Shown here piece after piece: positions 12,943 to 59,053 of a stretch of 64,000 nt of DNA. Below the pieces are notes generated by a model. The model saw only the letters and a program-made list of their open reading frames with translations. It had not been told where the DNA came from and ran no database searches. Numbering within the stretch: position 1 is the first letter of the stretch; each line of letters begins with the position of its first letter. A program made the position numbers and the translations under genes. Source of the stretch: Candidatus Kaiserbacteria bacterium (GTDB lineage Bacteria > Patescibacteriota > Minisyncoccia > Phycocordibacterales > Phycocordibacteraceae). Location: NCBI GenBank assembly GCA_963699165.1, contig OY969413.1, positions 276,562 through 340,561 of the forward strand, read 5' to 3'.

Positions 12943-13874
12943 TGTACGTTAGTATCGGGTTGTTGACACTTTTCGCGTCGACGAGTTCATTGAAAGCGCA
13001 AAAGGCGCGGTACGATTTTGGTGTTCAGACCATTTAATCGTTAGCGCCTCTTGCATGCACAAGAATACCAAATTGTTGCCGTACCAACGGCGTGAGATGT
13101 TCCGCAGATGGGGTATGGGAGCTCAAGCGACCCATTTGGCCCGAGAATACAAAGTCTCCCGAGAAACCGTATACGAGACACTTAAAGATGCCCGACTGAA
13201 CGTCTTCGAGAATCGTTCCTCGATGAATCACCGATATCGCACCATCCTGTACGGGTTCCAAAAGCTTGCTCGCACCGAAAAGCGCGTGGGAGAGAAGCTC
13301 GCCCGCAAAGCCCATCGATTGAACCGATACGAGAAATCGATACCGGGTGAAATGCTGCATCTCGATACCAAGCGCCTGCCGCTCCTGCGAGGAGAAGCCG
13401 CCGCGCAACCGAGAGAATACCTATTTGTCGCCATTGACGACTACTCTCGTACCGCCTTTGCCGATATCTTCCCCGACAAGACCGCATACTCGGCCGCCAT
13501 GTTCCTCGCCGAGAGCAAGCGAGTATTGCCGTTCCCCGTGACCGGCATCTATTCCGACAACGGGAGCGAGTACCGGGGACGACCGGATCATCCGGTGGCG
13601 GCACTCTGCAGGGAAACGGGCATGAGCCAAGCGTTCACGAAAGTGAAGCATCCCTGGACCAATGGAAAAGCGGAGCGATTCATCAAAACCCTCATGACCG
13701 AATGGCACGGGAAGACACGTTCCAATCACATCTCTCGAGCCCATCGCCGACGCTATTTGTATGCGTTTGTGGACTGGTACAACCAGACCCGCATTCACCA
13801 ATCGCTCGGAACAACTCCATTCGGAAGACTCGAGGCGTACCTAGAAAGTGTCAACAACGCGTTGACTTAGTACA
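12943..13874. mobile_element. IS481-family insertion sequence, copy 1 (about 932 bp). It has ~27-bp inverted repeats (TGTAC...GTTGTTGACAC) and a 7-bp target duplication TTTTGCC. Copy 2 at 36436..37367 differs by two SNPs.
   Basis: The two copies are near-identical (A/G at about 13089 is synonymous; one further SNP). Both start with TGTAC, and each has its own flanking direct repeats, a different one per copy. Confidence 0.85.
13055..13870 (+). CDS. IS481-family DDE transposase (rve integrase core), 271 aa.
   Basis: N-terminal HTH (ATHLAREYKVSRETVYE) and a DDE core with LHLDTKRLPLL, DNGSEYRG and HPWTNGKAERFIKTL, the HPxTNGxxER motif of IS481/IS3-type integrases. Confidence 0.9.
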   Translation: MHKNTKLLPYQRREMFRRWGMGAQATHLAREYKVSRETVYETLKDARLNVFENRSSMNHRYRTILYGFQKLARTEKRVGEKLARKAHRLNRYEKSIPGEMLHLDTKRLPLLRGEAAAQPREYLFVAIDDYSRTAFADIFPDKTAYSAAMFLAESKRVLPFPVTGIYSDNGSEYRGRPDHPVAALCRETGMSQAFTKVKHPWTNGKAERFIKTLMTEWHGKTRSNHISRAHRRRYLYAFVDWYNQTRIHQSLGTTPFGRLEAYLESVNNALT

Positions 13875-14753: not shown

Positions 14754-15797
14754 TCAATATTTTGTACGCGTCCAGTACTTTTGGCAGTCCCCGACGGTTA
14801 ATGTACACACAATATACCGCAAGGGGGACACCATGCCGAGCGACTGGTGCGGGCGTTTGGTGTTGTACCAGATCAGCCAGTCGACAAGCTTCAGATTGAA
14901 GGAATGAATATCGTCCCGCAGCAGGCCCCGATTCAGCATGATGAAGTCCTCGGAGACGGTGCGATTGAATCGTTCGACGTGGGCATTCATCTTGGGAGTG
15001 CGGGGGCGGGTGTGAAAGTGCGTGAGCCCGAGTTCGGCACAGGCATCCTCGAAGTGTTTGGCGAACTCGCTCCCGTTGTCGGTCTGCAACTCGTCGATAT
15101 CGAAGGGGCAAACCTCGATGACTCGGCGAAGGAAGTCGTCCGCGCTTCTCGACGAGTGGTTCGTATACGCGCCCGCAAAGGCGAACTTCCGCTCCACATC
15201 CACTGCCGTGAGGACGTACCGCTTCACGCCGTCGATGAAGCGGACGACGGTATCGAGCTCCATGCCGCGCTTGCCGGTGCGGCGAAGCTTGGTACGGCGT
15301 TTCTGCGGTGTTTCCGTGTGATTGCCCGTACGTGCGTGGAACGAGAGCCGGCTCTGCTGCGGGAGCAGACCGCGGTTCTTCAAATCCAGAATGACCCGCC
15401 CAACGTATGACTCCGACACGGAGTGCCCTTCTTCGCGCAGGAGAACGGCAAGCTTTGCTTTCCCAAGCCGGGGATGCGCCTGTCGTTCGCGGATGATGAA
15501 ATCCTCGACCTCGGGCAGAACAGTCCTCCTTCGACGCGCCTTCGGCGCAGTGCTCTTCGGGTCAAGTGCATCAATGCGGCCCTCGTGGGCTTTGAGTTCC
15601 TCCTTCCAGCGATACAAGGTGCGCTCCGAGGTGCCAAAGGCGTCGTATGCGGCCTCCGTCCCGTGCATGTCCCAGAATCCCAATATCTTCACCCGTCTGT
15701 CGACTTCCTTTGGTTTCCGCATATGCCGCAATCGTATCGTCCTTTCCCACATGCTCAACCAGCCCTTCGTACCCCTGAAATTGCTTCTGATGTGCAT
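14754..15797 (-). CDS. DDE transposase/integrase (rve core; IS481-like). Its last three codons read through the IS end into the flank.
   Basis: DNGSEFAKHF and HTRPRTPKMNAHVERFNRTVSEDF motifs, with an N-terminal HTH. The start is chosen inside the IS (MHIRSNF). The C-terminus differs from copy 2 only beyond the IS boundary. Confidence 0.8.
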   Translation of the reverse strand: MHIRSNFRGTKGWLSMWERTIRLRHMRKPKEVDRRVKILGFWDMHGTEAAYDAFGTSERTLYRWKEELKAHEGRIDALDPKSTAPKARRRRTVLPEVEDFIIRERQAHPRLGKAKLAVLLREEGHSVSESYVGRVILDLKNRGLLPQQSRLSFHARTGNHTETPQKRRTKLRRTGKRGMELDTVVRFIDGVKRYVLTAVDVERKFAFAGAYTNHSSRSADDFLRRVIEVCPFDIDELQTDNGSEFAKHFEDACAELGLTHFHTRPRTPKMNAHVERFNRTVSEDFIMLNRGLLRDDIHSFNLKLVDWLIWYNTKRPHQSLGMVSPLRYIVCTLTVGDCQKYWTRTKY

Positions 15798-15842
15798 ATA
15801 TCCTCGGTTATGAGGACTGCCAAATGTATCTGAACTTATGCA
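14763..15842. mobile_element. IS481-like (rve-type) insertion sequence, copy 1 (1080 bp). It has ~30-bp imperfect inverted repeats (TGTACGCG...; conserved core TTTGGCAGTCC) and a 5-bp target duplication TATTT. Copy 2 at 45559..46638 differs by one SNP.
   Basis: A 1080-bp near-identical repeat with TGTAC termini and a flanking direct repeat. The encoded protein has the integrase core. Confidence 0.8.
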
Positions 15843-15862
15843 TATTTTGCGTGCAGGCAGAG

Positions 15863-16531
15863 TCAGAGCCACCCTATTGGCTTCTCGGCATGCTCGATAA
15901 GATATGTATTCGTTTTACTAAAGGGCTTGCTTCCAAAAAAACCGTTTGAGGCGGAAAACGGCGACGGATGCGCGGATTCGAGAACCAGATGTTTGCTGCG
16001 GTCGATGTGCGCGCCTTTTGCTTTTGCATAGTTGCCCCACAGTATGAAAACCAAATGTTCGCGTTCTGCAGAAAGCGCGGCAATGACTGCATCGGTGAAT
16101 TGTTCCCAGCCGCGCGATTGGTGCGAGCCGGCGGCGTGGGCGCGTACGGTGAGAGTCGCGTTTAGAAGCAAAACGCCCTGCTCTGCCCATCGTGAGAGGT
16201 CGCCGCTCGTATGCTCGAGCGGCGCGCTCAAGTCATCCTCGATTTCTTTAAAAATATTTTTGAGCGACGGCGGGAGCGTCTGATTTTCTTCGACCGCGAA
16301 GGCAAGACCGTTTGCCTGCCCGTCGCCATGATACGGGTCTTGGCCGAGAATGACGACTTTTACTTTTTCAAACGGGCAAAGGTCGAATGCGCGAAAAATG
16401 TTTTTCGGCGCAGGGTACACTGCGCCGGTTTTGTACTCGTTTTTTACGAACGCGGCGAGTTCGGAAAAATACTGTTTTGCAAATTCGCCCGCGAGCTGCT
16501 GTTGCCACGAGGGTTCGATTTTCACTTCCAT
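15863..16531 (-). CDS. ung: Uracil-DNA glycosylase, family 1.
   Basis: Motifs VILGQDPYHGDGQANGLAF and LLLNATLTV...HQSRGWEQFTD, and the C-terminal HPSPFSASNGFFG. The 438-aa track ORF is an artefactual upstream extension; the true start is MEVKIEPSW at 16531. Confidence 0.9.
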   Translation of the reverse strand: MEVKIEPSWQQQLAGEFAKQYFSELAAFVKNEYKTGAVYPAPKNIFRAFDLCPFEKVKVVILGQDPYHGDGQANGLAFAVEENQTLPPSLKNIFKEIEDDLSAPLEHTSGDLSRWAEQGVLLLNATLTVRAHAAGSHQSRGWEQFTDAVIAALSAEREHLVFILWGNYAKAKGAHIDRSKHLVLESAHPSPFSASNGFFGSKPFSKTNTYLIEHAEKPIGWL

Positions 16532-16535
16532 GGGT

Positions 16536-16850
16536 TTACAAAGCTCCCTCGGCTTCGAGCAGTTCGCGCTTGCGCGCATCGCCGCGGTTGTAGCGGCCGA
16601 GCTCGCCGTTCGCGCGAATAACGCGATGGCATGGCACGGTCGGGTCGAAATTTTTTTTAATGACCGTGCCGACCGCGCGCTGCGCGCGCGGCCTGCCGAC
16701 GGCTTTCGCGATGTCGCCGTAACTTCTTGTCTCCCCTTTCGGGATACGGCGTACGGCAGCCAGAACGCGCTTTGCAAACACGTCGGCAGCCCTCGCGGTT
16801 TTACTGCCATACATGGAAGCGTTTTCCCTCTCGGTTGAATTTGCCTGCAT
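16536..16850 (-). CDS. ogt: Methylated-DNA--protein-cysteine methyltransferase (MGMT/Ogt) DNA-binding/active-site domain protein.
   Basis: PCHRV active-site motif (TVPCHRVIRANGELGRY) in a ~100-aa protein. It lies 4 nt upstream of ung. Confidence 0.85.
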   Translation of the reverse strand: MQANSTERENASMYGSKTARAADVFAKRVLAAVRRIPKGETRSYGDIAKAVGRPRAQRAVGTVIKKNFDPTVPCHRVIRANGELGRYNRGDARKRELLEAEGAL

Positions 16851-16851
16851 A

Positions 16852-17640
16852 TTATTTCATCTTTTTCGCTATCGCGTGCAATTCCTGCAATTTCTTGCCT
16901 GCGTTTTCGCGATAGGGGCAATATTCGCACGATAGTCCCGTCTTCGGAATTTCGTCTGATTCCAAACATGCTCTCAATGCGACGAGCGTGCCGGGAATCC
17001 ATGAATCGTCGCCATCGTAGGCCAAAATCGTAATGTCGAATTCGAGCTTTCCGTCGAACGATTTCTTGTCGTTCAGTCCGTTTGCATACACGAAATACGC
17101 CGTCGGGGACACGGAAAATCCGTTCTTGCGAAACAGCCATTGATACACTTCGACTTGCCGCTTGTATTGGATTTTCCATTCGTCTTCAAGCGTCACTTCT
17201 TTTTTCCCGGCCGTCGCTTTGTAATCAACCACATGCAACTCGCCCTTCGGATTGACCCACACATCGTCGATGCCGCCGCGCACAATCAAATTGTTTTCCG
17301 TATCGTGATATTTCACGCCGCGCCGAAGCGCATCGCGCCATTCTTCGAGTTTTTCATGCTTAAAGGGAATCGCATCTATGCCGTATTTTTCCATGAGCGG
17401 ATGCGCCTCGCCTTTTGCGCGGCGGATGTCGAATTCTTTTTTGAAGAGCTCGTCAACCGCGTTGTTGAGCGTAAACGGCGGCGTGTCCGGTCGCCCGATG
17501 CCATACCGCGCTTCGAGCCAAAAACAGCGCGGGCATTCCAAAAAACGGTCGATTTTCGAACGCGATATCGTATACGGTTCGTCGGACGATGCATTAAATC
17601 GTCCTTTTTCCCATTTCAATTTGTATCCTGCAAACGGCAT
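16852..17640 (-). CDS. Cas4-like PD-(D/E)XK nuclease with a four-cysteine Fe-S cluster signature. There is no CRISPR context.
   Basis: N-terminal ECPRCFW, a core VVDYKATAGK (the D-x-K of PD-(D/E)XK) and a C-terminal CEYCPYREN, which is the Cas4/AddB-type cysteine arrangement. The start is taken at MPFAGYKLKW, 2 nt after the upstream gene's stop. Confidence 0.65.
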   Translation of the reverse strand: MPFAGYKLKWEKGRFNASSDEPYTISRSKIDRFLECPRCFWLEARYGIGRPDTPPFTLNNAVDELFKKEFDIRRAKGEAHPLMEKYGIDAIPFKHEKLEEWRDALRRGVKYHDTENNLIVRGGIDDVWVNPKGELHVVDYKATAGKKEVTLEDEWKIQYKRQVEVYQWLFRKNGFSVSPTAYFVYANGLNDKKSFDGKLEFDITILAYDGDDSWIPGTLVALRACLESDEIPKTGLSCEYCPYRENAGKKLQELHAIAKKMK

Positions 17641-17641
17641 A

Positions 17642-18493
17642 TCAGCGTGTCTCGGGAAGCGAGAATAGCCCATCGGCCTCGGCGAGAATTTCGCCGACGC
17701 GCGCGGGCGAGAGATGCAATACATCGAGCGTGCTTCGGTCGCGCGTGATTTCGTCCACCGCAATCACCTCGTGTTCGATGAGAAGTTTTTTTTCGGCCTG
17801 CGAGAGTTCGGTAAGCGCGGTAATCGGATACACCTTCGAACGAACCATGCGAACGTACAAATTGTCATTCTCGGGATAGCCCCACCCTAGCAACTCCACT
17901 CCGGAACACTCGGCATACGCAATGGCTTCCGTTGTAAATTTCGTGTTTGTAACCAAAATGCCGCGATCAATGGTACAGGTGCTCGATGCCGAATCGCAAT
18001 TAAAAATGTCATCGAATCGGCTTTTTACATACAGTGCCGTCTTCAAATCGGTTTTGTAGCCCGGGTCATTGTGATATTTAAGTTCGGCGGCGAGGTATTC
18101 GTTATTGTCCGGATGCGATGCGTAAAAATCCACTTCGTGCCTTACGCATTTTCCCTGCATAATTTTCCGCGTTTCAACCTTCCATCCTTCGGCGGTATAC
18201 AAATGCGATATGAAGTCCTCAAACGGATGACCGGTCGGGCCGAGATCGAGCATGGCTCGGCGAAGCGCATACCGCGCCGCAACCGGCCGCGCTTCTCTGC
18301 GCAGCATCGAGAATGCGCGCGAATAAATTTCCTTTGAAGATATTCCCGGCACAATCATCTGCGTGATGGATCCTGCGATGCGCTCGGCACTATGCGCGCC
18401 GGCGCCCGCGCGTTCAAGCGAATGCGCAAGCCGCACGGGGTCAAATGTCTCCGTTGTGCCGTCGGCTTTGGTGATGGTCGGCAACGTGCTCAT
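17642..18493 (-). CDS. ATP-cone domain fused to a restriction-endonuclease-fold (Mrr-like) catalytic domain.
   Basis: N-terminal ITKADGTTETFDPVRLAHSLERAGA (ATP-cone), followed by HEVDFYASH...ELKYH...TKFTTEAIAYAECSGVELLG, which resembles the Mrr_cat restriction endonuclease core. The start is at MSTLPTIT. Confidence 0.6.
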   Translation of the reverse strand: MSTLPTITKADGTTETFDPVRLAHSLERAGAGAHSAERIAGSITQMIVPGISSKEIYSRAFSMLRREARPVAARYALRRAMLDLGPTGHPFEDFISHLYTAEGWKVETRKIMQGKCVRHEVDFYASHPDNNEYLAAELKYHNDPGYKTDLKTALYVKSRFDDIFNCDSASSTCTIDRGILVTNTKFTTEAIAYAECSGVELLGWGYPENDNLYVRMVRSKVYPITALTELSQAEKKLLIEHEVIAVDEITRDRSTLDVLHLSPARVGEILAEADGLFSLPETR

Positions 18494-18912
18494 GATGCGG
18501 TAGTTGTCGCGAGCGAGCCGTTTACGGTTGCGGTAATGGGCGTATGCGCGGGTGCGGCTATGGTCGTCGAAAAGGCGACCGTCGTAGGCGCCTGCAGACA
18601 CAAGCCCGTATATTGCGGCATCAGAATTGCGATTTGAATCGTCTGCGTGCTTGAAGATGTGCCGACGAGCGAAGCATGTGCGGAAATGGACGTGCATGCA
18701 TTCGGCGTTACGACGGAGCCGGACAGCGTGTGCGTTCCCCTTCGGAAAATATCATGGACGCTTATGTCAGGGATGGTTGCTTCCTGCGTCGCCCGTGCGG
18801 GCGGGTTCCCGGCATCATGCGTGTGCGGAACCGATAATATAAAACCCGCAACGATAATAATCGCCAAGATAAGGGCGCTAATCCATAGTCGCTTGGTATG
18901 TACGAGTGTCAT
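18490..18912 (-). CDS. Hypothetical membrane-anchored Thr/Ser-rich protein.
   Basis: N-terminal TM helix (LWISALILAIIIVAGFIL) then a T/S/A-rich tail. It has 4-nt overlaps with both neighbouring genes, which suggests translational coupling. Confidence 0.45.
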   Translation of the reverse strand: MTLVHTKRLWISALILAIIIVAGFILSVPHTHDAGNPPARATQEATIPDISVHDIFRRGTHTLSGSVVTPNACTSISAHASLVGTSSSTQTIQIAILMPQYTGLCLQAPTTVAFSTTIAAPAHTPITATVNGSLATTTAS

Positions 18913-19916
18913 GCGCGTATGATACCACCGCCGACGATTTTGTCGGCATGGTAGAAAACAATTGACTGGCCTGGTGCGGCAATTTCCGATAGTGCACTGG
19001 TTGAGAAAAATCTGTCGCCCTCGACACGGCCCGCGATGCGCGGGCCGCGATACCGGTATTGCGCCTCGGCCGTCTCACTTGGCTCAAGGAACCAGTTCGC
19101 GTCGGTAAACCGAATGCACTGCGGCGCATTCGCCGCTTCCGACAGGCGCCCCTTCCCCACCGTGAATTCGTTTTTCGAGACATCCTTTGCAAGAACAAAC
19201 CATGGCCCCGACTCGCGCGCATTTTGGAGCGCGATTCGTTCTCCGATGGTGTGAAGCAAGACGCCATCGTGTTCGCCTACAACCATCCCTTTTTCATCGA
19301 TTGCGCGACCGGTAACAAGCGCATCGCCGAATTCGGCCCGTAGAAATTCTTCAACGGAGACGCTTCCTAGGAAACACACACCCTGGCTGTCTTTCTTTTC
19401 AGCGACCGGCAGATTGAATTTCCTGGCAAGCGCGCGCACGGCGGTCTTCTCATAGTGCCCAACCGGAAAAATCGTTGACTCTAAAATATCTTTTGGCACG
19501 GCCCAGAGAAAATAGCTTTGGTCTTTCTCGCCGCTCCGGTAATGCCCGGTCGCGATGCAGTCCGCTCCGTTCGATTTCGCGAAACGGTAAAAAGCGCCGA
19601 ACTTCAGCTCTTTATTGCACATGATGTCCGGGTTCGGCGTCCGTCCCGCACGATACTCGGCGAGCAGATAGTCGATGACTTCTTTCTTGTACTCCGCGCT
19701 TGCGTCTAGCGTAAGAAACGGGATGCGGAGCCGTGCCGCGACGCGCATCGCGTCGCGGCGATCTGCCGCCCACGTGCACGGCATCCCGGGCGGATACCAG
19801 CCCTTGATAAACACGCCCGTCACGTTCGCGCCCGCACGTAGAAGGAGCGCAGCCGAGACGGCAGAATCAACTCCGCCGGATAATCCAACAAATACGGTCT
19901 TTCCGCGTACATTCAT
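18909..19916 (-). CDS. mnmA: tRNA-specific 2-thiouridylase MnmA.
   Basis: SGGVDS PP-loop, NPDIMCN and ATGHY motifs. Confidence 0.9.
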   Translation of the reverse strand: MNVRGKTVFVGLSGGVDSAVSAALLLRAGANVTGVFIKGWYPPGMPCTWAADRRDAMRVAARLRIPFLTLDASAEYKKEVIDYLLAEYRAGRTPNPDIMCNKELKFGAFYRFAKSNGADCIATGHYRSGEKDQSYFLWAVPKDILESTIFPVGHYEKTAVRALARKFNLPVAEKKDSQGVCFLGSVSVEEFLRAEFGDALVTGRAIDEKGMVVGEHDGVLLHTIGERIALQNARESGPWFVLAKDVSKNEFTVGKGRLSEAANAPQCIRFTDANWFLEPSETAEAQYRYRGPRIAGRVEGDRFFSTSALSEIAAPGQSIVFYHADKIVGGGIIRA

Positions 19917-20886: not shown

Positions 20887-22272
20887 CTAAAGCGGCAGAT
20901 TCGCGGGCGCTTCGCCGGTCGCGGACGAAACGCGCTCGAGGCCCGGCGTATGTATACCGGCCGAAGGTATGTGATACAGAGTGGCGAGTTCTTCGGTGCT
21001 CAAAACCATAATATCATTTCTAGTCAGCCCTTCCGAAAACGGTTCATGGAAAAATTGGCGGCGTCGATATGCCTCGACCATTTTCACCGTATACCGCTTT
21101 TTTAACTTGCTCGAACCGATTTCCCACGGATAATCGTCGAATATCATCAGCCATGCGGTCGCCTTGATGCCATTCCACCCCTCAACGCTGAACGGTTTGA
21201 ACAGGCCAATCATTTGCGCAATCATAGTCGGCTTGAAACTGTCGGGTTTCGCGAGATAAATACAGCGCGCGCCGACATCGAACCCGAGTTTCGATGTGTT
21301 GCGCTCGATTGCTGCCATCTTTTCCGACTCTCCTTTCGTCGGATTTGGGAATCCCGGCATCTCTTTGCCGGTCGTGGGATCGACATACGGCGTTCGGGTA
21401 TCCTTGCGGATTTTTTCAACGATTTCCTTTCCTTCGTCCCGCCATGTGTACGGCTTATTATCCGCGTTGAGTTTATTGTATTTGTGTCCGCTGTGCACTT
21501 GGATGATGAATTGCAGCCAGACATATTCGCCCTTCCCGGCCGAACCGAGAAACTCAGTAATGCTGGCAAGCGGATCAATTTGTTCCGGTTCCTCTTGTAC
21601 CTTGTCAAGACCGAACTCGATATAGGTTTTAATGGGCAGCGGATCTTTTTCGATTTTCCTGTAATCGCAACCCCAAATGCTCCACTCGCCCGGTACCGCC
21701 GAAATGCATCTCGTATAATCAAGTGCTTCGGTAATCTGCACGCCGGGATATTGCGCATACATTTGCGACTCGACAATTCTTCGAAAATTAGCGCGCGTCC
21801 ACACGTAAAAGTGAACCCTCCCTTCGAACGACACCATTTCAAACGACCACCACGGACGCACGGCACCCTTTATCGAGCGGGCATACCAGGTCGATTCGCC
21901 CGGGGAGAGATGGATTGAGGAAAAAAACGCTTCCATGGCGAGCGGCGTCTTCACGAGATTTCTTGGTGGTTTGATTTCGAGAACGATATACGTCTGCGAA
22001 TTTATGAATTCGCTCCGTTTGAGCGTAAGCCATAACGACAATGCTCCATCTGCGAGCAGAAACGGGAGCCAAACCGGAGCGAGATACAGCGCAAGCGAGA
22101 CCGCGGTATCTACCTGATGAAACATGAACATCGTCGATATGAGCAGCAGGAGCATCCCTGCAAAGAAAATAGGCCACGGAGCAAATCGGAAGCCCGTGTT
22201 ACCGGTTATTTTTTTGAAAAAAGCGTCGATTTCTTTCGCAAACGGAAGCATGTTTGGATAGTATATCAACAA
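20887..22272 (-). CDS. Hypothetical integral membrane protein (461 aa): N-terminal TM bundle plus a large soluble domain.
   Basis: Several hydrophobic helices at the N-terminus. No recognisable catalytic motif. Confidence 0.5.
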   Translation of the reverse strand: MLIYYPNMLPFAKEIDAFFKKITGNTGFRFAPWPIFFAGMLLLLISTMFMFHQVDTAVSLALYLAPVWLPFLLADGALSLWLTLKRSEFINSQTYIVLEIKPPRNLVKTPLAMEAFFSSIHLSPGESTWYARSIKGAVRPWWSFEMVSFEGRVHFYVWTRANFRRIVESQMYAQYPGVQITEALDYTRCISAVPGEWSIWGCDYRKIEKDPLPIKTYIEFGLDKVQEEPEQIDPLASITEFLGSAGKGEYVWLQFIIQVHSGHKYNKLNADNKPYTWRDEGKEIVEKIRKDTRTPYVDPTTGKEMPGFPNPTKGESEKMAAIERNTSKLGFDVGARCIYLAKPDSFKPTMIAQMIGLFKPFSVEGWNGIKATAWLMIFDDYPWEIGSSKLKKRYTVKMVEAYRRRQFFHEPFSEGLTRNDIMVLSTEELATLYHIPSAGIHTPGLERVSSATGEAPANLPL

Positions 22273-22311: not shown

Positions 22312-23385
22312 TTACGCCGCCGAGTATCGGCCGTCTTTAAGCCGAGTAAAGTACCGGGGATCGTTGAGGTTCACCAAAATCGTATTGTCTTTCACGAAAC
22401 GCGCGCGCTTCACCTGCTTGATGATTTCTTCCTTTTTGAGCGGACCCGTTTTCTCGAGCGTCTCGCGAATCACATCACGTACGACTCCCGGTTTGTAGCC
22501 CCATTCGGTAAGCGCGTAGAGTCCGCGGCCGACAAGCACGAAGCGCGAATCTTTGATCAGCTCGTTGTGCGTAGTCGCGACGTGCGCCTTCTTTGAAAAA
22601 AGAGTGCCGATTGCCTTCGCGACTTCCGAGAAGTGCATCGGCGCGCCGTTTCGCTTCACCGCGAGATATGCGTAATCGCGAATGCCTTTGATGCGGATGG
22701 CGGCGGCGTTGGTCTTGCCCCATTCCGAAAGCGGATTGCTGCCGATGTGCTTCGAGAGAGAAAGCCAGCGCTTCAAAACCTCCTCGTTCTTGTAGGCGTC
22801 GTTCACCTCTTTCAGCTCTTCCAAAAATCGGTCGAGAAGCTCGCTTTCGGTTACAACCTCGTTGTCCGGCAACGTCGCGTACAGGCGGGAAAGCGCGTCG
22901 TGGATGTTTTTTGCCGTGCCGCGGTCAATGTGCCATCGGGCGACGAAATCATTTGTCTCGCGCTCGCGGAAAAACGCGGAACCGAGCATCAAAAAGAAGC
23001 GGAAGCGGTTGCGGGTCTTCTCATCCTTTCCCAGTGCGGAAAGAAGCGTGTCTTCGGGCACGATTGCGCCGAGCGAATCGATGTATGCCGCAATCTCGTC
23101 AAACGCCGAGCTCGCCTCCTTAAAGGCCTTGCTCGCGCGGATGGCGTCGAGGCCGGCGGCTTCAATTTGCCGGACGCGCTCGCGGGTAATCGACGAGCGG
23201 TCGCCGATTGCTTCGAGCGTCTCGCGTTCTGTTGCGGTGCCTAGACCGAAGCGTCGAACGAGCACCGTGCGGGCGCGTTCCGGTGCAGTTGCGAGAAGTC
23301 GCTTCGCGAGAGCCGAACTATCAAACGTAAACACGGCCGCCTTCAATTCGGCCTTTTGTTTCGCTGTTTTTTTGGCTTTGACCAT
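22312..23385 (-). CDS. Protein with a sigma-70 region 4-like segment and a HARE-HTH-like domain.
   Basis: RRFGLGTATERETLEAIGDRSSITRERVRQIE resembles sigma-70 region 4. The C-terminal MHFSEVAKAIGTLFSKKAHVATTHNELIKDSRFVLVGRGLYALTEWG resembles a HARE-HTH domain. Confidence 0.5.
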   Translation of the reverse strand: MVKAKKTAKQKAELKAAVFTFDSSALAKRLLATAPERARTVLVRRFGLGTATERETLEAIGDRSSITRERVRQIEAAGLDAIRASKAFKEASSAFDEIAAYIDSLGAIVPEDTLLSALGKDEKTRNRFRFFLMLGSAFFRERETNDFVARWHIDRGTAKNIHDALSRLYATLPDNEVVTESELLDRFLEELKEVNDAYKNEEVLKRWLSLSKHIGSNPLSEWGKTNAAAIRIKGIRDYAYLAVKRNGAPMHFSEVAKAIGTLFSKKAHVATTHNELIKDSRFVLVGRGLYALTEWGYKPGVVRDVIRETLEKTGPLKKEEIIKQVKRARFVKDNTILVNLNDPRYFTRLKDGRYSAA

Positions 23386-23432: not shown

Positions 23433-26279
23433 TTATACCACAAGATTTATGATTCTGCCCGCTACATAAACCACCCGATTCGGCTCCTTTCCCGAAAGCG
23501 CCGAAATGACGGCCGGAAGGTCCTTTGCTGCGGCTACTGCATCCATTTCAGAAGCGTCCGGAGCAAGCCGAGCCGTCCCGCGACGTTTCCCGTTGACCTG
23601 AACCACAACTTCCATTTCTTCGGCAACAAGAAGAGACTCGTCGTGCACCGGCCACGAAGCGAGATGTATGGACAACGTCTCGCCCACAAGCTCCCAAAGT
23701 TCATCGGTGATGTGGGGGGCAAACGGCGCAAGCAATCGCAAGAATATTTTCCACTGTTCTTTGCCGATGCTTCCCTGCTTATCGATGGCATTCAGAAGAA
23801 TCATCATCTGGCTCACCGCTGTGTTAAATTTAAATGCCTCTATATCGTTGCCGACTTTGCGAATCGTTTCGTGGAGAATCTGATTGAGCGCGGGAACGTC
23901 GTGTTCCGTAACTCGCTCCTGCGTCTGCCATACGCGTTCAACGAAGCGCGCCGTACCAGCGATGGATGCAGTACTCCACGAGGTCGTGTTCTCGAACGGG
24001 CCCATAAACATCTCATAAATGCGGAAAGCATCGGCCCCATACTCCGCAACCACGTCGTCAGGATTGATGACATTTCCGAACCGCTTGCTCATTTTGCGTC
24101 CGTCCTCGGCCAGAATAAATCCGAGGAACTCAAGTCGGGCAAACGGCTCGGGAGTGCTCACCACGCTAATGTCGTACAGGAATTTGTGCCAAAAACGCGC
24201 ATAGATGAGATGTCGCACCGCGTGGTCGCCGCCGACATACACGTCAACCGGCGCCCAATATTTTTCTTTCTTCGCGGACACGAGTTGCTCCGCATTATGC
24301 GGATCCATAAAGCGCAGGTAATACCACGATGAGCCCGCCCATTGAGGCATCGTGTTGGTCTCGCGTTTTGCAGGACCGCCGCATTTGGGACAGGTCGTGT
24401 TGACCCAATCATCGATAGCCGCAAGCGGCGATTCTCCCGTGCCGGTCGGCTCATACGACTCGACTTCCGGCAGAAGGAGCGGTAAATCTTCGTACGGCAC
24501 GGCAACAACCCCGTCGGTTGGACAATGTATAACCGGAATCGGTTCGCCCCAGTATCGCTGGCGCGAGAAAACCCAATCGCGCAATTTGTAGCGAACAACC
24601 CGCCGGCCGCCGACGGCTTCCGTAATGTCCCACTTAGCGCTTTCACTGTTGCGACCGTCGAAGGAACCCGAATGTATGAGATAGCCGTGACCGGTGAGCG
24701 ATTCTTCCTTATGCAGCAGACGCCACATACCTTTCTGATGCGCGGGAGTTAGCTGCTCCTCCACGTCCTTTTCATCAACCCAATACAACGTGTGCTTTGC
24801 TTGCTCGTCGGCGGGAATGATTCCTTGCTGTGCAGTGCTGTCAATTTCGGCGAGCAATGCATGCGCGTGCGCGCAACGATTTTCTTTTTTGTGTGAAGCG
24901 CAATAGCGCGCCGCGGTAATCCAGCGGAGTTTGCGCACGATGCGAACGCCCTCAAGCGCCGCTTCTTCGCGTATTTCGGCAAGCGCCGCGTCTTCCGGTG
25001 TTTGTCCGGCCTCAATGCCGCCCATAATCGCGGTTGTTATTCCCTCAAGTGTGCCATGCCACTTCAAAAGAGCGTACTTCCCCGTTGAATTGTCGCGAAG
25101 GTGAACGACGACGGTATCGCGTTTCACCTCGGTGAACTCGGGCCGCGGCGGATTAAGAGTGTCACTCTCGCAAGGAACAACAACCTGCCGTATCGGGAGT
25201 TTAAACTTCTCGGCAAATTCAAAATCGCGCTCGTCATGCGCCGGTACGGCCATCACCGCGCCGGTGCCATATGAGGCCAGAACGTAATCGGCTATGTAAA
25301 CCGGAATTCCCTCCTTAGTGGCAGGGTTGATGGCTGACACCCCTTCAAGAATTACTCCCGTTTTCTCTTTTCCTTCCGCACTGCGATCGATTTCCGTTTT
25401 AAGCGCCACGGACTTTGCGTATTCGCGTACCGCATCCTTGTTTTTTACCAAGCCGTATTCAATCAGTTTGCTGACGAGCGGATGCTCCGGCGCAAGAACA
25501 AGATATGTGGCGCCAAAAATCGTGTCGGGTCGCGTTGTGAAAACAGTGGCCTTGTCGGCTATATCTGTAAAAGCGAAATCGATTTCCGCGCCTTCAGAGC
25601 GGCCTATCCAATTCCGTTGGGCTTCCTTAATGTGTTCCGGCCAATCGAGCAAGTCGAGGTCGGCCAGCATCCTGTCTGCGTAATCGGTAATTTTTAGCAC
25701 CCACTGCGGAAGATTCTTTTTGACGACCGGCGTTCCGCATCGCTCGCAAACGGCGCCGTCGAGGTCTTCGTTCGCAAGGCCGGTCATGCACGACGGACAC
25801 CAGTTAATCGGCTCGTTGGATTGAAATGCGAGACCTTGCTCGAGCATTTTGAGGAAAATCCACTGCGTCCAGTGATAGTACGCCGGGTCAGTCGTATTGA
25901 TTTCGCGCGACCAATCATAATCGAAGCCGATGTGCGCTAGCTGGGCTTTGAAGTTTGCGATGTTGTCCTCAACGGCTTTGCGCGGATGCGTCTTGTTTTT
26001 GAGAGCGTAATTTTCTGCGGGCAAACCGAAGGCATCCCATCCCATGGGATGCAGCACCGAAAAGCCGCGCATGCGCATGTGGCGCGAATAGATATCCGTC
26101 GCAATGTATCCTTTCGGATGTCCGACATGCAACCCTTCGCCGGACGGATATGGGAACATATCGAGCACGTATTTTTTTTCTTTGTCAGGGTCGTCAGACG
26201 TGCGGTAGGTATCATTTAGCTTCCAGCGCTCCTGCCATTTGCGCTCTATATCACCGTGCGAGAAAGGGTCTTTAGCCAT
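23433..26279 (-). CDS. leuS: Leucine--tRNA ligase (948 aa; long form with insertions).
   Basis: N-terminal MAKDPFSHGDIERKWQERW...YVLDMFPYPSGEGLHVGHPKGY (HIGH motif) and a KMSKS region (GRKMSKRFGNVI). Confidence 0.95.
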   Translation of the reverse strand: MAKDPFSHGDIERKWQERWKLNDTYRTSDDPDKEKKYVLDMFPYPSGEGLHVGHPKGYIATDIYSRHMRMRGFSVLHPMGWDAFGLPAENYALKNKTHPRKAVEDNIANFKAQLAHIGFDYDWSREINTTDPAYYHWTQWIFLKMLEQGLAFQSNEPINWCPSCMTGLANEDLDGAVCERCGTPVVKKNLPQWVLKITDYADRMLADLDLLDWPEHIKEAQRNWIGRSEGAEIDFAFTDIADKATVFTTRPDTIFGATYLVLAPEHPLVSKLIEYGLVKNKDAVREYAKSVALKTEIDRSAEGKEKTGVILEGVSAINPATKEGIPVYIADYVLASYGTGAVMAVPAHDERDFEFAEKFKLPIRQVVVPCESDTLNPPRPEFTEVKRDTVVVHLRDNSTGKYALLKWHGTLEGITTAIMGGIEAGQTPEDAALAEIREEAALEGVRIVRKLRWITAARYCASHKKENRCAHAHALLAEIDSTAQQGIIPADEQAKHTLYWVDEKDVEEQLTPAHQKGMWRLLHKEESLTGHGYLIHSGSFDGRNSESAKWDITEAVGGRRVVRYKLRDWVFSRQRYWGEPIPVIHCPTDGVVAVPYEDLPLLLPEVESYEPTGTGESPLAAIDDWVNTTCPKCGGPAKRETNTMPQWAGSSWYYLRFMDPHNAEQLVSAKKEKYWAPVDVYVGGDHAVRHLIYARFWHKFLYDISVVSTPEPFARLEFLGFILAEDGRKMSKRFGNVINPDDVVAEYGADAFRIYEMFMGPFENTTSWSTASIAGTARFVERVWQTQERVTEHDVPALNQILHETIRKVGNDIEAFKFNTAVSQMMILLNAIDKQGSIGKEQWKIFLRLLAPFAPHITDELWELVGETLSIHLASWPVHDESLLVAEEMEVVVQVNGKRRGTARLAPDASEMDAVAAAKDLPAVISALSGKEPNRVVYVAGRIINLVV

Positions 26280-58635: not shown

Positions 58636-58982
58636 TCCGGCCTTCGATTCCGGACAAACGCTTCGCGTTTTCACCCCTCACTTCGTTCGGGCCGCCGGGA
58701 ATCGGTCACGGATAATTCTCTCGCCGACGCTCGAGAATTTCCGTGACCACGCCTCGCGGTTCGGCTTGCTAGCCGAACATCGCTCCGGCATTCGATTCCG
58801 GACAAACGCTTCGCGTTTTCACCCCTCACTACGTTCGGGCCGCCGGGAATCGGTCACGGATAATTCTCTCGCCGACGCTCGAGAATTTCCGTGACCACGC
58901 CTCGCGGTTCGGCTTGCTAGCCGAACATCGCTCCGGCATTCGATTCCGGACAAACGCTTCGCGTTTTCACCCCTCACTACGT
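58636..58982. repeat. Tandem repeat with a 148-bp period, about 2.3 units, abutting the 3' end of tRNA-Pro(GGG). Each full unit begins with a 19-20-nt copy of the tRNA-Pro 3' end (TTCGGGCCGCCGGGAATCG) and contains internal hairpins.
   Basis: Units at 58686-58833 and 58834-58981 plus a partial unit at ~58636-58685. The unit contains the inverted repeat GGTCACGGATAATTCTC...GAGAATTTCCGTGACC and the hairpin GTTCGGCTtgctAGCCGAAC. A few SNPs distinguish the units. Confidence 0.8.
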
Positions 58983-59053
58983 TCGGGCCGCCGGGAATCG
59001 AACCCGGTCTACATCCACCCCATGGACGCGTACTACCGGCATACTCCGGCCCG
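58983..59053 (-). tRNA. tRNA-Pro (anticodon GGG), 71 nt.
   Basis: CGGGCCG/GA/GTAT-GCCGGTA-GTAC/G/CGTCC-ATGGGGT-GGATG/TAGA/CCGGG-TTCGATT-CCCGG/CGGCCCG/A. It has the C1:G72 pair and A73 characteristic of bacterial tRNA-Pro. Confidence 0.85.

Follow-up and report, generated by a model that had tools for sequence, protein, structure and literature searches.

A candidate adenine-nucleotide-gated nuclease in a Candidatus Kaiserbacteria genome: an ATP-cone joined to an AF1548-type PD-(D/E)XK core

The stretch of DNA considered here (the window) comprises 64,000 nucleotides of a Candidatus Kaiserbacteria bacterium contig (OY969413.1, positions 276,562 to 340,561) and carries on its minus strand, at positions 17642-18493, a gene for a three-domain protein: an ATP-cone, an AF1548/Mrr-type PD-(D/E)XK nuclease core and an AF1548-like C-terminal domain. 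The most economical reading of this architecture is a nuclease gated by adenine nucleotides. With a probability of roughly 55% it is held here to serve nucleic-acid turnover or repair tied to the energy and nucleotide status of the cell, and not restriction or anti-phage activity. The original prediction for this gene, made from the sequence alone, had described an ATP-cone fused to an Mrr-type nuclease core and had suggested a phage-sensing or stress-gated effector. The parts of the gene are listed below.

17642..18493, minus strand: coding sequence of the ATP-cone/nuclease protein, 283 amino acids plus stop (open reading frame and sequence)
18248..18493, minus strand: ATP-cone domain, residues 1-82 (Pfam PF03477 and Foldseek)
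18218..18244, minus strand: junction motif LGPTGHPFE, residues 84-92, ending in E92 on the first nuclease helix (48-member alignment)
17879..18226, minus strand: PD-(D/E)XK nuclease core, residues 90-205 (phmmer and Foldseek matches to 1Y88, Pfam Mrr_cat)
18130-18128, 18085-18083 and 18079-18077, minus strand: catalytic codons of D122, E137 and K139 respectively
17645..17878, minus strand: C-terminal helical domain, AF1548-like_C (helix-hairpin-helix-like), residues 206-283 (alignment to the C-terminal half of 1Y88)

The original prediction assigned about 90 N-terminal residues to an ATP-cone and this assignment stands. The Pfam family PF03477 matches residues 6-79 with 27.6 bits against a cut-off of 25.8, and the same match was obtained in 48 of 48 diverse relatives (best E=1.3e-10); these 48 members, taken from a HMMER scan, are the basis of the invariance and Pfam counts in this text unless another set is named. 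An AlphaFold2 model built with close homologues only reached a predicted local distance difference test score (pLDDT) of 76.5, and with the 48 diverse members it reached pLDDT 96.1 and a predicted template-modelling score of 0.91. The model shows the cone fold, namely a beta-hairpin at 6-16 (strands 6-8 and 14-16) followed by helices 19-28, 33-46, 53-67 and 69-82. Foldseek related it with probability 1.0 to the cones of Escherichia coli NrdR (root-mean-square deviation (rmsd) 2.1 Å over 84 columns) and of Aquifex aeolicus ribonucleotide reductase (RNR; 2.4 Å over 91 columns), and likewise to those of E. coli NrdA, L. blandensis NrdB and human RNR. Searches of PDB sequences with the cone alone and with a family profile found no ATP-cone chains, so the cone is confirmed by Pfam and by structure only.

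The nucleotide pocket can be followed residue by residue. The sequences of E. coli NrdA (residues 1-95) and NrdR, identical to the PDB chains, were aligned with family members (eleven sequences), and the register relative to E. coli NrdA is identical through K9, D11, G12, E15 and K21. The pocket of NrdR is formed by V51, K53, E59, F61, K65, L66 and I108 (bioRxiv 2025.03.28.645925), and in Streptomyces coelicolor NrdR mutation of V48, K50, E56 and K62 abolishes nucleotide binding (PMC9110341). The window protein aligns I7, K9, E15, F17, R21, L22 and I56 to these seven E. coli positions, where R21 is a lysine in most family members. K9 is invariant and F17 and K21 are nearly so. For E15, invariance was seen in the close homologues from Paceibacteria and throughout the eleven-sequence NrdA/NrdR alignment. 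With these positions kept, and two further positions of the known cones changed (see below), the predicted cone is likely to bind an adenine nucleotide.

The cone is joined to the nuclease by the most conserved stretch of the whole family, LGP[ST]G[FYH]PFE, in which G85, G88, F91 and E92 are invariant. It is a short, rigid link through which the final helix of the cone leads into the opening helix of the nuclease, the one that bears the invariant glutamate E92, and allosteric coupling would be expected here.

A search of PDB sequences with phmmer returned one strong match, the Archaeoglobus fulgidus protein AF1548 (1Y88), at E=2e-22 and 30% identity, residues 94-274 aligning to positions 23-193 of the chain. 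The same entry is the top PDB match in Foldseek (E=1e-13, TM score 0.77 normalised to 1Y88), whose further matches include Can2, Card1, Cdn1 and VC1899 with their nuclease domains, as well as MspJI. The structural check of both halves proposed with the original prediction, by AlphaFold and Foldseek, came out in its favour. The core has the topology alpha-beta-beta-beta-alpha-beta (helix 90-101; strands 105-113, 118-127 and 132-139; helix 150-164; strand 177-182). The catalytic residues of AF1548 are D38, E51 and K53 (PMC1874628, PMC1821046), and once a 13-residue tag offset is allowed for, D122, E137 and K139 of the window protein align to them; D122 lies in the HEVD motif pointed out in the original prediction, and E137 and K139 lie in AELKYH. 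The conservation of D/E-x-K residues, which had been left for checking, was borne out: E92, D122, E137 and K139 are invariant in members as distant as 31-44% identity. Further invariant positions are K9, G12, G114, C116, E120, R159, D162, C196, W204, P207 and P223, together with T182 and N183 of a TNTKF motif at residues 182-186. By its sequence the D...ExK catalytic triad is intact, and the protein is a putative metal-dependent nuclease.

The earlier attribution of this core to the Mrr type is correct in part. The fold is confirmed, and the Pfam model Mrr_cat is matched by 47 of the 48 relatives and by the window protein itself (residues 175-202, 24.4 bits against a cut-off of 21, the C-terminal part of the model). 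The label of Mrr-type restriction is not supported, however, as there is no Mrr_N domain, the reader of modified DNA (no Pfam match at E<=1), and AF1548 is the closest relative. Moreover, a third domain had been overlooked. The alignment runs on through the second, helical domain of AF1548, hence the protein consists of three domains, the last one (residues ~206-283) being AF1548-like and built of five helices in the model. PF22357 (AF1548-like_C) matches 30 of the 48 relatives but misses its cut-off of 23.9 bits in the window copy, at 14.5 bits, and one relative also weakly matches HHH_5. A four-cysteine Fe-S or Zn site was considered and rejected, because only C116 and C196 are invariant family-wide (both are shared with AF1548), whereas C166 and C173 are invariant only in the Paceibacteria subgroup. 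No NCBIfam model, that of NrdR included, matches the window protein.

The coordinates 17642-18493 given in the original prediction are exact. The gene starts with ATG at 18493-18491 and ends with TGA at 17644-17642, and the start overlaps the stop of an upstream gene for a 140-amino-acid protein by 4 nt (ATGA), as it does in relatives. A Cas4-like gene begins 1 nt past the stop and close relatives are packed equally tightly; in addition, a public metagenome-assembled genome (MAG) of the Minisyncoccia (Patescibacteria) contains an identical 283-amino-acid protein with gene calls in agreement. It is on this overlap, packing and identical protein that the exactness of the coordinates rests. The mechanical open reading frame is longer, from 18697 to 17642 on the minus strand (351 amino acids), and was rejected as the real gene since almost no homologue carries its N-terminal extension and since the start/stop overlap of 4 nt is conserved. 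Around the gene, scans for promoters and terminators gave nothing that stood out from shuffled sequence.

This architecture is shared by many proteins, and the family spans no fewer than three phyla, with hundreds of species. A cluster database at 90% identity gave 1,530 relatives, and the best 120 of these share 72-79% identity with the window protein, are 279-289 amino acids long and come from Paceibacteria, Kaiserbacteria and Minisyncoccia. The HMMER scan, exhaustive over 1.84 billion representatives at 50% identity, gave 1,052 matches with E<=1e-3, of which 384 have E<=1e-30, and nearly all of the best 150 span residues 6-275 at 33-44% identity. Scanning GTDB with one genome per species confirmed the family in at least 597 species, among them many Patescibacterial lineages, Bacteroidota (Marinilabilia, Owenweeksia, Chryseobacterium, Lutibacter and others) and a MAG labelled Candidatus Elulimicrobium; Chlamydiota were added by a plasmid search. 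Relatives are named in their sources as "ATP cone domain-containing protein", "restriction endonuclease", "ATPase" or "PDDEXK family nuclease", the first of these being already the RefSeq name of members. The architecture itself is therefore no discovery, as the fusion is common and labelled. The original prediction left it undecided whether the architecture had been described. In sequence databases it is abundantly catalogued; the searchable literature, outside of which lies the 2000 paper defining the ATP-cone, contained no description of an ATP-cone/nuclease fusion. The literature on "ATP-cone" since 2017 is mostly concerned with RNR and NrdR, to which its work on cone structure and mechanism is confined, the rest being incidental, with no nuclease among the matches listed.

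The neighbours of the gene in the window are given below.

22312-23385, minus strand: Sigma70_r4/HARE-HTH-like protein, part of the leuS-to-UDG syntenic block
20887-22272, minus strand: DUF8128 protein, part of the leuS-to-UDG syntenic block
18909..19916, minus strand: mnmA (tRNA 2-thiouridylase), upstream
18490..18912, minus strand: 140-amino-acid protein of no Pfam family, the upstream neighbour
16852..17640, minus strand: Cas4-like PD-(D/E)XK nuclease (PDDEXK_1, PF12705), downstream (Pfam; weak Cas4 matches in PADLOC)
16536-16850, minus strand: MGMT-like DNA_binding_1 gene (Pfam)
15863-16531, minus strand: uracil-DNA glycosylase (UDG)

The long block from leuS to UDG is syntenic and conserved across Patescibacteria. 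Among 72 analysable related loci from genomes of GTDB species, mnmA stands at position -1 or -2 in 57, with DUF8128 further upstream in 43 and YceG in 42. On the downstream side, 44 loci have a PDDEXK_1 Cas4-like gene within a distance of one to three genes; UDG follows in 12 loci and MGMT in 11. Genes of DUF7282 and MgtC often intervene in these loci and UDG or MGMT comes after, and the window keeps this Patescibacterial gene order without DUF7282 and MgtC. One more distant relative is found between HAD hydrolase and DciA/MreB genes. From locus to locus the nuclease and MnmA keep pace in their identity to the window copies, with a mean difference of 0.4 points; the identity of the nuclease is higher than that of YceG and DUF8128 and lower than that of UDG. 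The conserved synteny and the MnmA-like identity mark it, in Patescibacteria, as a chromosomal gene passed on vertically and kept under steady purifying selection.

Several further observations were made in this region. In four relatives a DUF7282 and/or MgtC-family gene separates the ATP-cone nuclease from the Cas4-like nuclease, where the window (position 17641) has neither, and MgtC-family genes, fused to DUF4010, also neighbour the Bacteroidota-type homologues, which makes the association a cross-phylum one. The Cas4-like nuclease has N-terminal CPRC and C-terminal CEYCPY cysteines (a possible Fe-S site) with no cas genes or CRISPR array near it, and its assignment to a CRISPR locus was rejected, there being no CRISPR array in the window. 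The MGMT-like protein, of 104 amino acids, consists of the DNA_binding_1 domain only and keeps the PCHRV active-site motif. Just beyond UDG two rve-type integrase/transposase reading frames are present (13055-13870, plus strand; 14754-15872, minus strand), and the MAG contig JBAPNL010000068.1, which carries the identical nuclease gene, ends just past UDG, presumably through an assembly break at copies of the insertion sequence (IS). The leucyl-tRNA synthetase (948 amino acids, 23433-26279, minus strand) contains a NUDIX domain (PF00293, 30 bits against a cut-off of 21.1, residues 388-515) inserted right after the editing domain (residues 222-373), with the same match in orthologues at two related loci. 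Elsewhere in the window, 58636-59000 is a 148-bp tandem repeat of 2.5 copies that are 99% identical.

Outside the candidate phyla radiation (CPR) the neighbourhood is of another kind. In Owenweeksia the nuclease is followed by a beta-CASP nuclease of the metallo-beta-lactamase (MBL) fold with an RNA-specificity domain, a protein of ~500 amino acids of the thymidine phosphorylase (TP) family, phosphoribosyl pyrophosphate (PRPP) synthase, PPK2 and a P-type ATPase, and upstream of it stand DeoC, phosphofructokinase (PFK) and a 2-hydroxyacid dehydrogenase. The same four-gene cassette of ATP-cone nuclease, MBL hydrolase, TP-family protein and PRPP synthase is located on a Pontibacter megaplasmid (NZ_CP021236) and on a Criblamydia plasmid (NZ_LK031773, 5755-20555), in the latter with overlapping stop and start codons and flanked by genes for a P-type ATPase, phosphoketolase, glycogen phosphorylase, acetate kinase and glucoamylase. 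Both plasmid cassettes adjoin an integrase or an IS5 transposase, and they suggest a transferable island of low-energy metabolism.

For neighbour counts 80 metagenomic loci of the non-CPR subgroup were retrieved. Of the 58 loci with enough downstream sequence, 26 have a co-oriented beta-CASP gene at position +1 or +2, and tandem-domain Usp genes, in up to three copies, are upstream in 21 of 63. Also recurring are P-type ATPase (12 loci), TP-family (10), PRPP synthase (9), Hsp20 (8), MgtC-DUF4010 (7), 2-hydroxyacid dehydrogenase (7) and PFK genes (6). Two or more module genes accompany the nuclease in 25 of 56 loci of at least 6 kb. In Bradyrhizobium diazoefficiens the genes bll3117-3116-3115, coding for TP, PRPP synthase and MBL, are a direct target of FixK2 and are induced by microoxia together with Usp, Hsp20, PFK and phosphoketolase/acetate-kinase genes (PMC9104804, PMC6515984). 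On the strength of the cassette, of the Usp and Hsp20 neighbours and of this microoxia-induced triad, the nuclease outside the CPR is seen as part of a module for hypoxia or low-energy stress that also includes enzymes of nucleotide salvage. The suggestion of a stress-gated effector gains indirect support, and this from relatives in other phyla only, which lie in islands of Usp, Hsp20 and hypoxia-type genes; the window itself has no such genes.

The favoured mechanism would proceed as follows. The cone would bind an adenine nucleotide (ATP and/or dATP, possibly ADP or AMP), and the binding would alter the oligomeric state or the packing of the domains through cone-cone contacts, as it does in all ATP-cone proteins characterised so far (RNRs and NrdR). 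The change would be relayed through the LGPxGxPFE junction to the catalytic helix and would switch cleavage on or off, while the C-terminal domain would grip the nucleic-acid backbone without sequence specificity. ATP-cones are established to work through oligomerisation, by switching in RNRs and by formation of tetramers, 12-mers and filaments in NrdR (PMC9110341, PMC12176259), and it is by analogy with these that a nucleotide-driven switching of the nuclease is proposed. That the ATP-bound form is the off state ("do not cut"), with activity rising when ATP falls, is a guess. In Bacteroidota and Chlamydiota the nuclease gene is the first of the cassette with beta-CASP nuclease, nucleotide/nucleoside phosphorylase and PRPP synthase, in stress islands of the hypoxia or dormancy type, and in this Patescibacterium it is a core gene directly upstream of the Cas4-like nuclease, MGMT and UDG.

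A number of points weigh against this reading. The Pfam score of the window cone barely exceeds its cut-off. The phosphate-binding arginine (R10 of NrdA, R51 of S. coelicolor NrdR) is replaced here by alanine, although E. coli NrdR, with S54, also lacks it. Tyr131 of NrdR, which guards the outer site that discriminates dATP, aligns to Lys or Arg, for which reason the ligand preference may differ. About half of the non-CPR loci have neither cassette nor stress genes and are surrounded by unrelated neighbours, and within the window there are no beta-CASP, TP or PRPP synthase genes. The two neighbourhoods diverge, with DNA-repair genes in Patescibacteria and nucleotide salvage or stress genes elsewhere, and indicate no single role. 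Finally, nucleotide binding and nuclease activity are predictions drawn from sequence and model, and the substrate may be either DNA or RNA.

A bolder form of the favoured reading, less probable than not, is put forward tentatively. The protein may be the adenylate-sensing gatekeeper of an unrecognised low-energy route of nucleic-acid recycling, in which a drop of ATP would free the endonuclease and the cuts would be processed by the co-encoded beta-CASP exonuclease, the phosphorylase and PRPP synthase, so that nucleotides are either rebuilt or burnt. The sensor-nuclease would have become a fixed core gene in Patescibacteria. Patescibacteria depend on scavenged nucleotides.

The main rival to a nuclease for turnover or repair under adenylate control is a dedicated DNA-repair or recombination endonuclease, dimeric and structure-specific, whose cone would license incision when the supply of dATP or other deoxynucleoside triphosphates permits repair synthesis. 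This alternative suits the neighbours in the window better than the favoured role does, as the gene is followed, in the same direction and with hardly any gap, by the Cas4-like nuclease, MGMT and UDG, an association that recurs at the frequencies reported above for the 72 loci. Its C-terminal domain is also helix-hairpin-helix-like, and the arrangement of a nuclease with such a domain is known from short enzymes of the XPF/Mus81 type. Nevertheless, the neighbours outside Patescibacteria are not repair genes, and the Patescibacterial block includes the unrelated YceG, MnmA, MgtC and DUF7282, because of which the adjacency may be inherited gene order and not shared function. On balance a role of this dedicated kind is doubtful.

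It is improbable that the protein is an anti-phage or abortive-infection effector, the cone of which would sense collapse or distortion of the ATP/dATP pool and free a non-specific nuclease. The logic of a ligand sensor attached to a PD-(D/E)XK domain is the same as in Can2, Card1 and Cdn1, and the core resembles theirs in Foldseek; Card1_endonuc is matched in Pfam by 3 of the 48 members, one relative weakly matches CARF_PDDEXK, and the two plasmid copies lie beside an integrase or IS element. Against these stand the following results. The window protein had no significant match in PADLOC-DB 2.0, the only hit being to the nuclease tail of ZorD at E=0.019, and its neighbours gave only weak partial matches to Cas4, QueC and MzaA, which make up no system. 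No CRISPR array was detected in the window. Searches with tblastn found no copy in 50,697 phage records and only two among 72,556 plasmids. Defence genes are typically patchy and fast-evolving, whereas this gene keeps its synteny and an MnmA-like rate over 72 loci, with 72-79% identity among many Paceibacteria. The absence of defence matches and of phage copies, the few plasmids, the synteny and the rate data together argue against a defence-island gene, and the same evidence speaks against the phage-sensing effector of the original prediction.

Less credible still is a catalytically silent, nucleotide-responsive DNA-binding regulator, an analogue of NrdR in which the nuclease fold and the helix-hairpin-helix-like domain would replace the Zn-ribbon. 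An ATP-cone with a DNA-binding module is indeed the design of NrdR, PD-(D/E)XK folds are sometimes inactive DNA binders, and NA-iREase1 is weakly matched in Pfam by 3 of the 48 members; however, the invariance of E92, D122, E137 and K139 at such low identity would be unexpected for an inactivated site, and linkage to an RNR gene was not seen in any locus examined. The least credible of all is an Mrr-like Type IV (modification-dependent) restriction endonuclease, for which the Mrr_cat match, some database names and the listing of MspJI by Foldseek may be quoted, but the match covers residues 175-202 only, the N-terminus is an ATP-cone and not the Mrr_N winged helix, AF1548 is by far the best relative, and the gene has no restriction-modification context and is conserved and syntenic in minimal genomes. 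Each of the three readings, as a restriction enzyme, a defence effector or an inactive regulator, conflicts with one or more of the features tested.

If the cone gates cleavage, a classic allosteric module gains a new output and adenylate or dATP status is linked directly to nucleic-acid cleavage, the same sensor as in RNR and NrdR being placed on an intact nuclease, also in genome-reduced Patescibacteria. If the recycling route exists, an ATP-cone would for the first time be shown to govern a process beyond ribonucleotide reduction. The islands of beta-CASP, salvage, Usp and Hsp20 genes offer a concrete and testable physiological setting, and a hypothesis is attached to the uncharacterised microoxia-induced MBL/TP/PRPP-synthase operon of rhizobia. 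For annotation, the labels "restriction endonuclease" and "ATPase" on family members are misleading.

Among known systems the nearest is AF1548 of A. fulgidus (1Y88; Mrr_cat and AF1548-like_C), whose nuclease core and C-terminal domain are homologous to those of the window protein and which has in common with it the D/E/K triad and the cysteines C116 and C196. AF1548 is without an ATP-cone, its chain beginning at about the PFE junction, and as a structural-genomics protein it gives the fold and not the function. E. coli Mrr (Type IV) shares the Mrr_cat family, but the window protein is without Mrr_N, has the extra C-terminal domain and lies outside restriction-modification or defence islands. 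Can2, Card1 and Cdn1 of type III CRISPR systems likewise couple a small-ligand sensor to a related core (Foldseek probability ~1.0, rmsd 4-5 Å over ~120 columns); all are designed as ligand-gated non-specific nucleases. Their sensor is a CARF domain for cyclic oligoadenylate, in contrast to the ATP-cone of the window protein, whose ligand would be a housekeeping adenine nucleotide and which has no CARF and no CRISPR or defence context.

On the side of the sensor, the likeness to NrdR consists in an ATP-cone fused to a nucleic-acid-binding module, with cones that superpose at ~2 Å and with K, E, F, K and L of the inner site kept. In NrdR, however, the cone is C-terminal and follows a Zn-ribbon of four cysteines, whereas the window cone is N-terminal with no Zn-ribbon and its output is a nuclease; the Tyr131 gatekeeper is not conserved in the window family and no linkage to RNR is seen. 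The cones of RNRs (NrdA, NrdD, NrdJ and L. blandensis NrdB) belong to the same domain family and share the N-terminal position, but they regulate a radical enzyme where the window cone sits on a nuclease, with R10 of NrdA changed to Ala. Lastly, the three families of the FixK2-controlled operon bll3117-bll3116-bll3115 are the same that follow the nuclease in Owenweeksia, Pontibacter and Criblamydia. Among the metagenomic loci, 45 reach 4.5 kb or more downstream of the nuclease, and about 10 of them show these families as well; the Bradyrhizobium operon as published consists of these three genes, with no ATP-cone nuclease (PMC9104804, PMC6515984), and in the three named genera it is the nuclease that precedes them.

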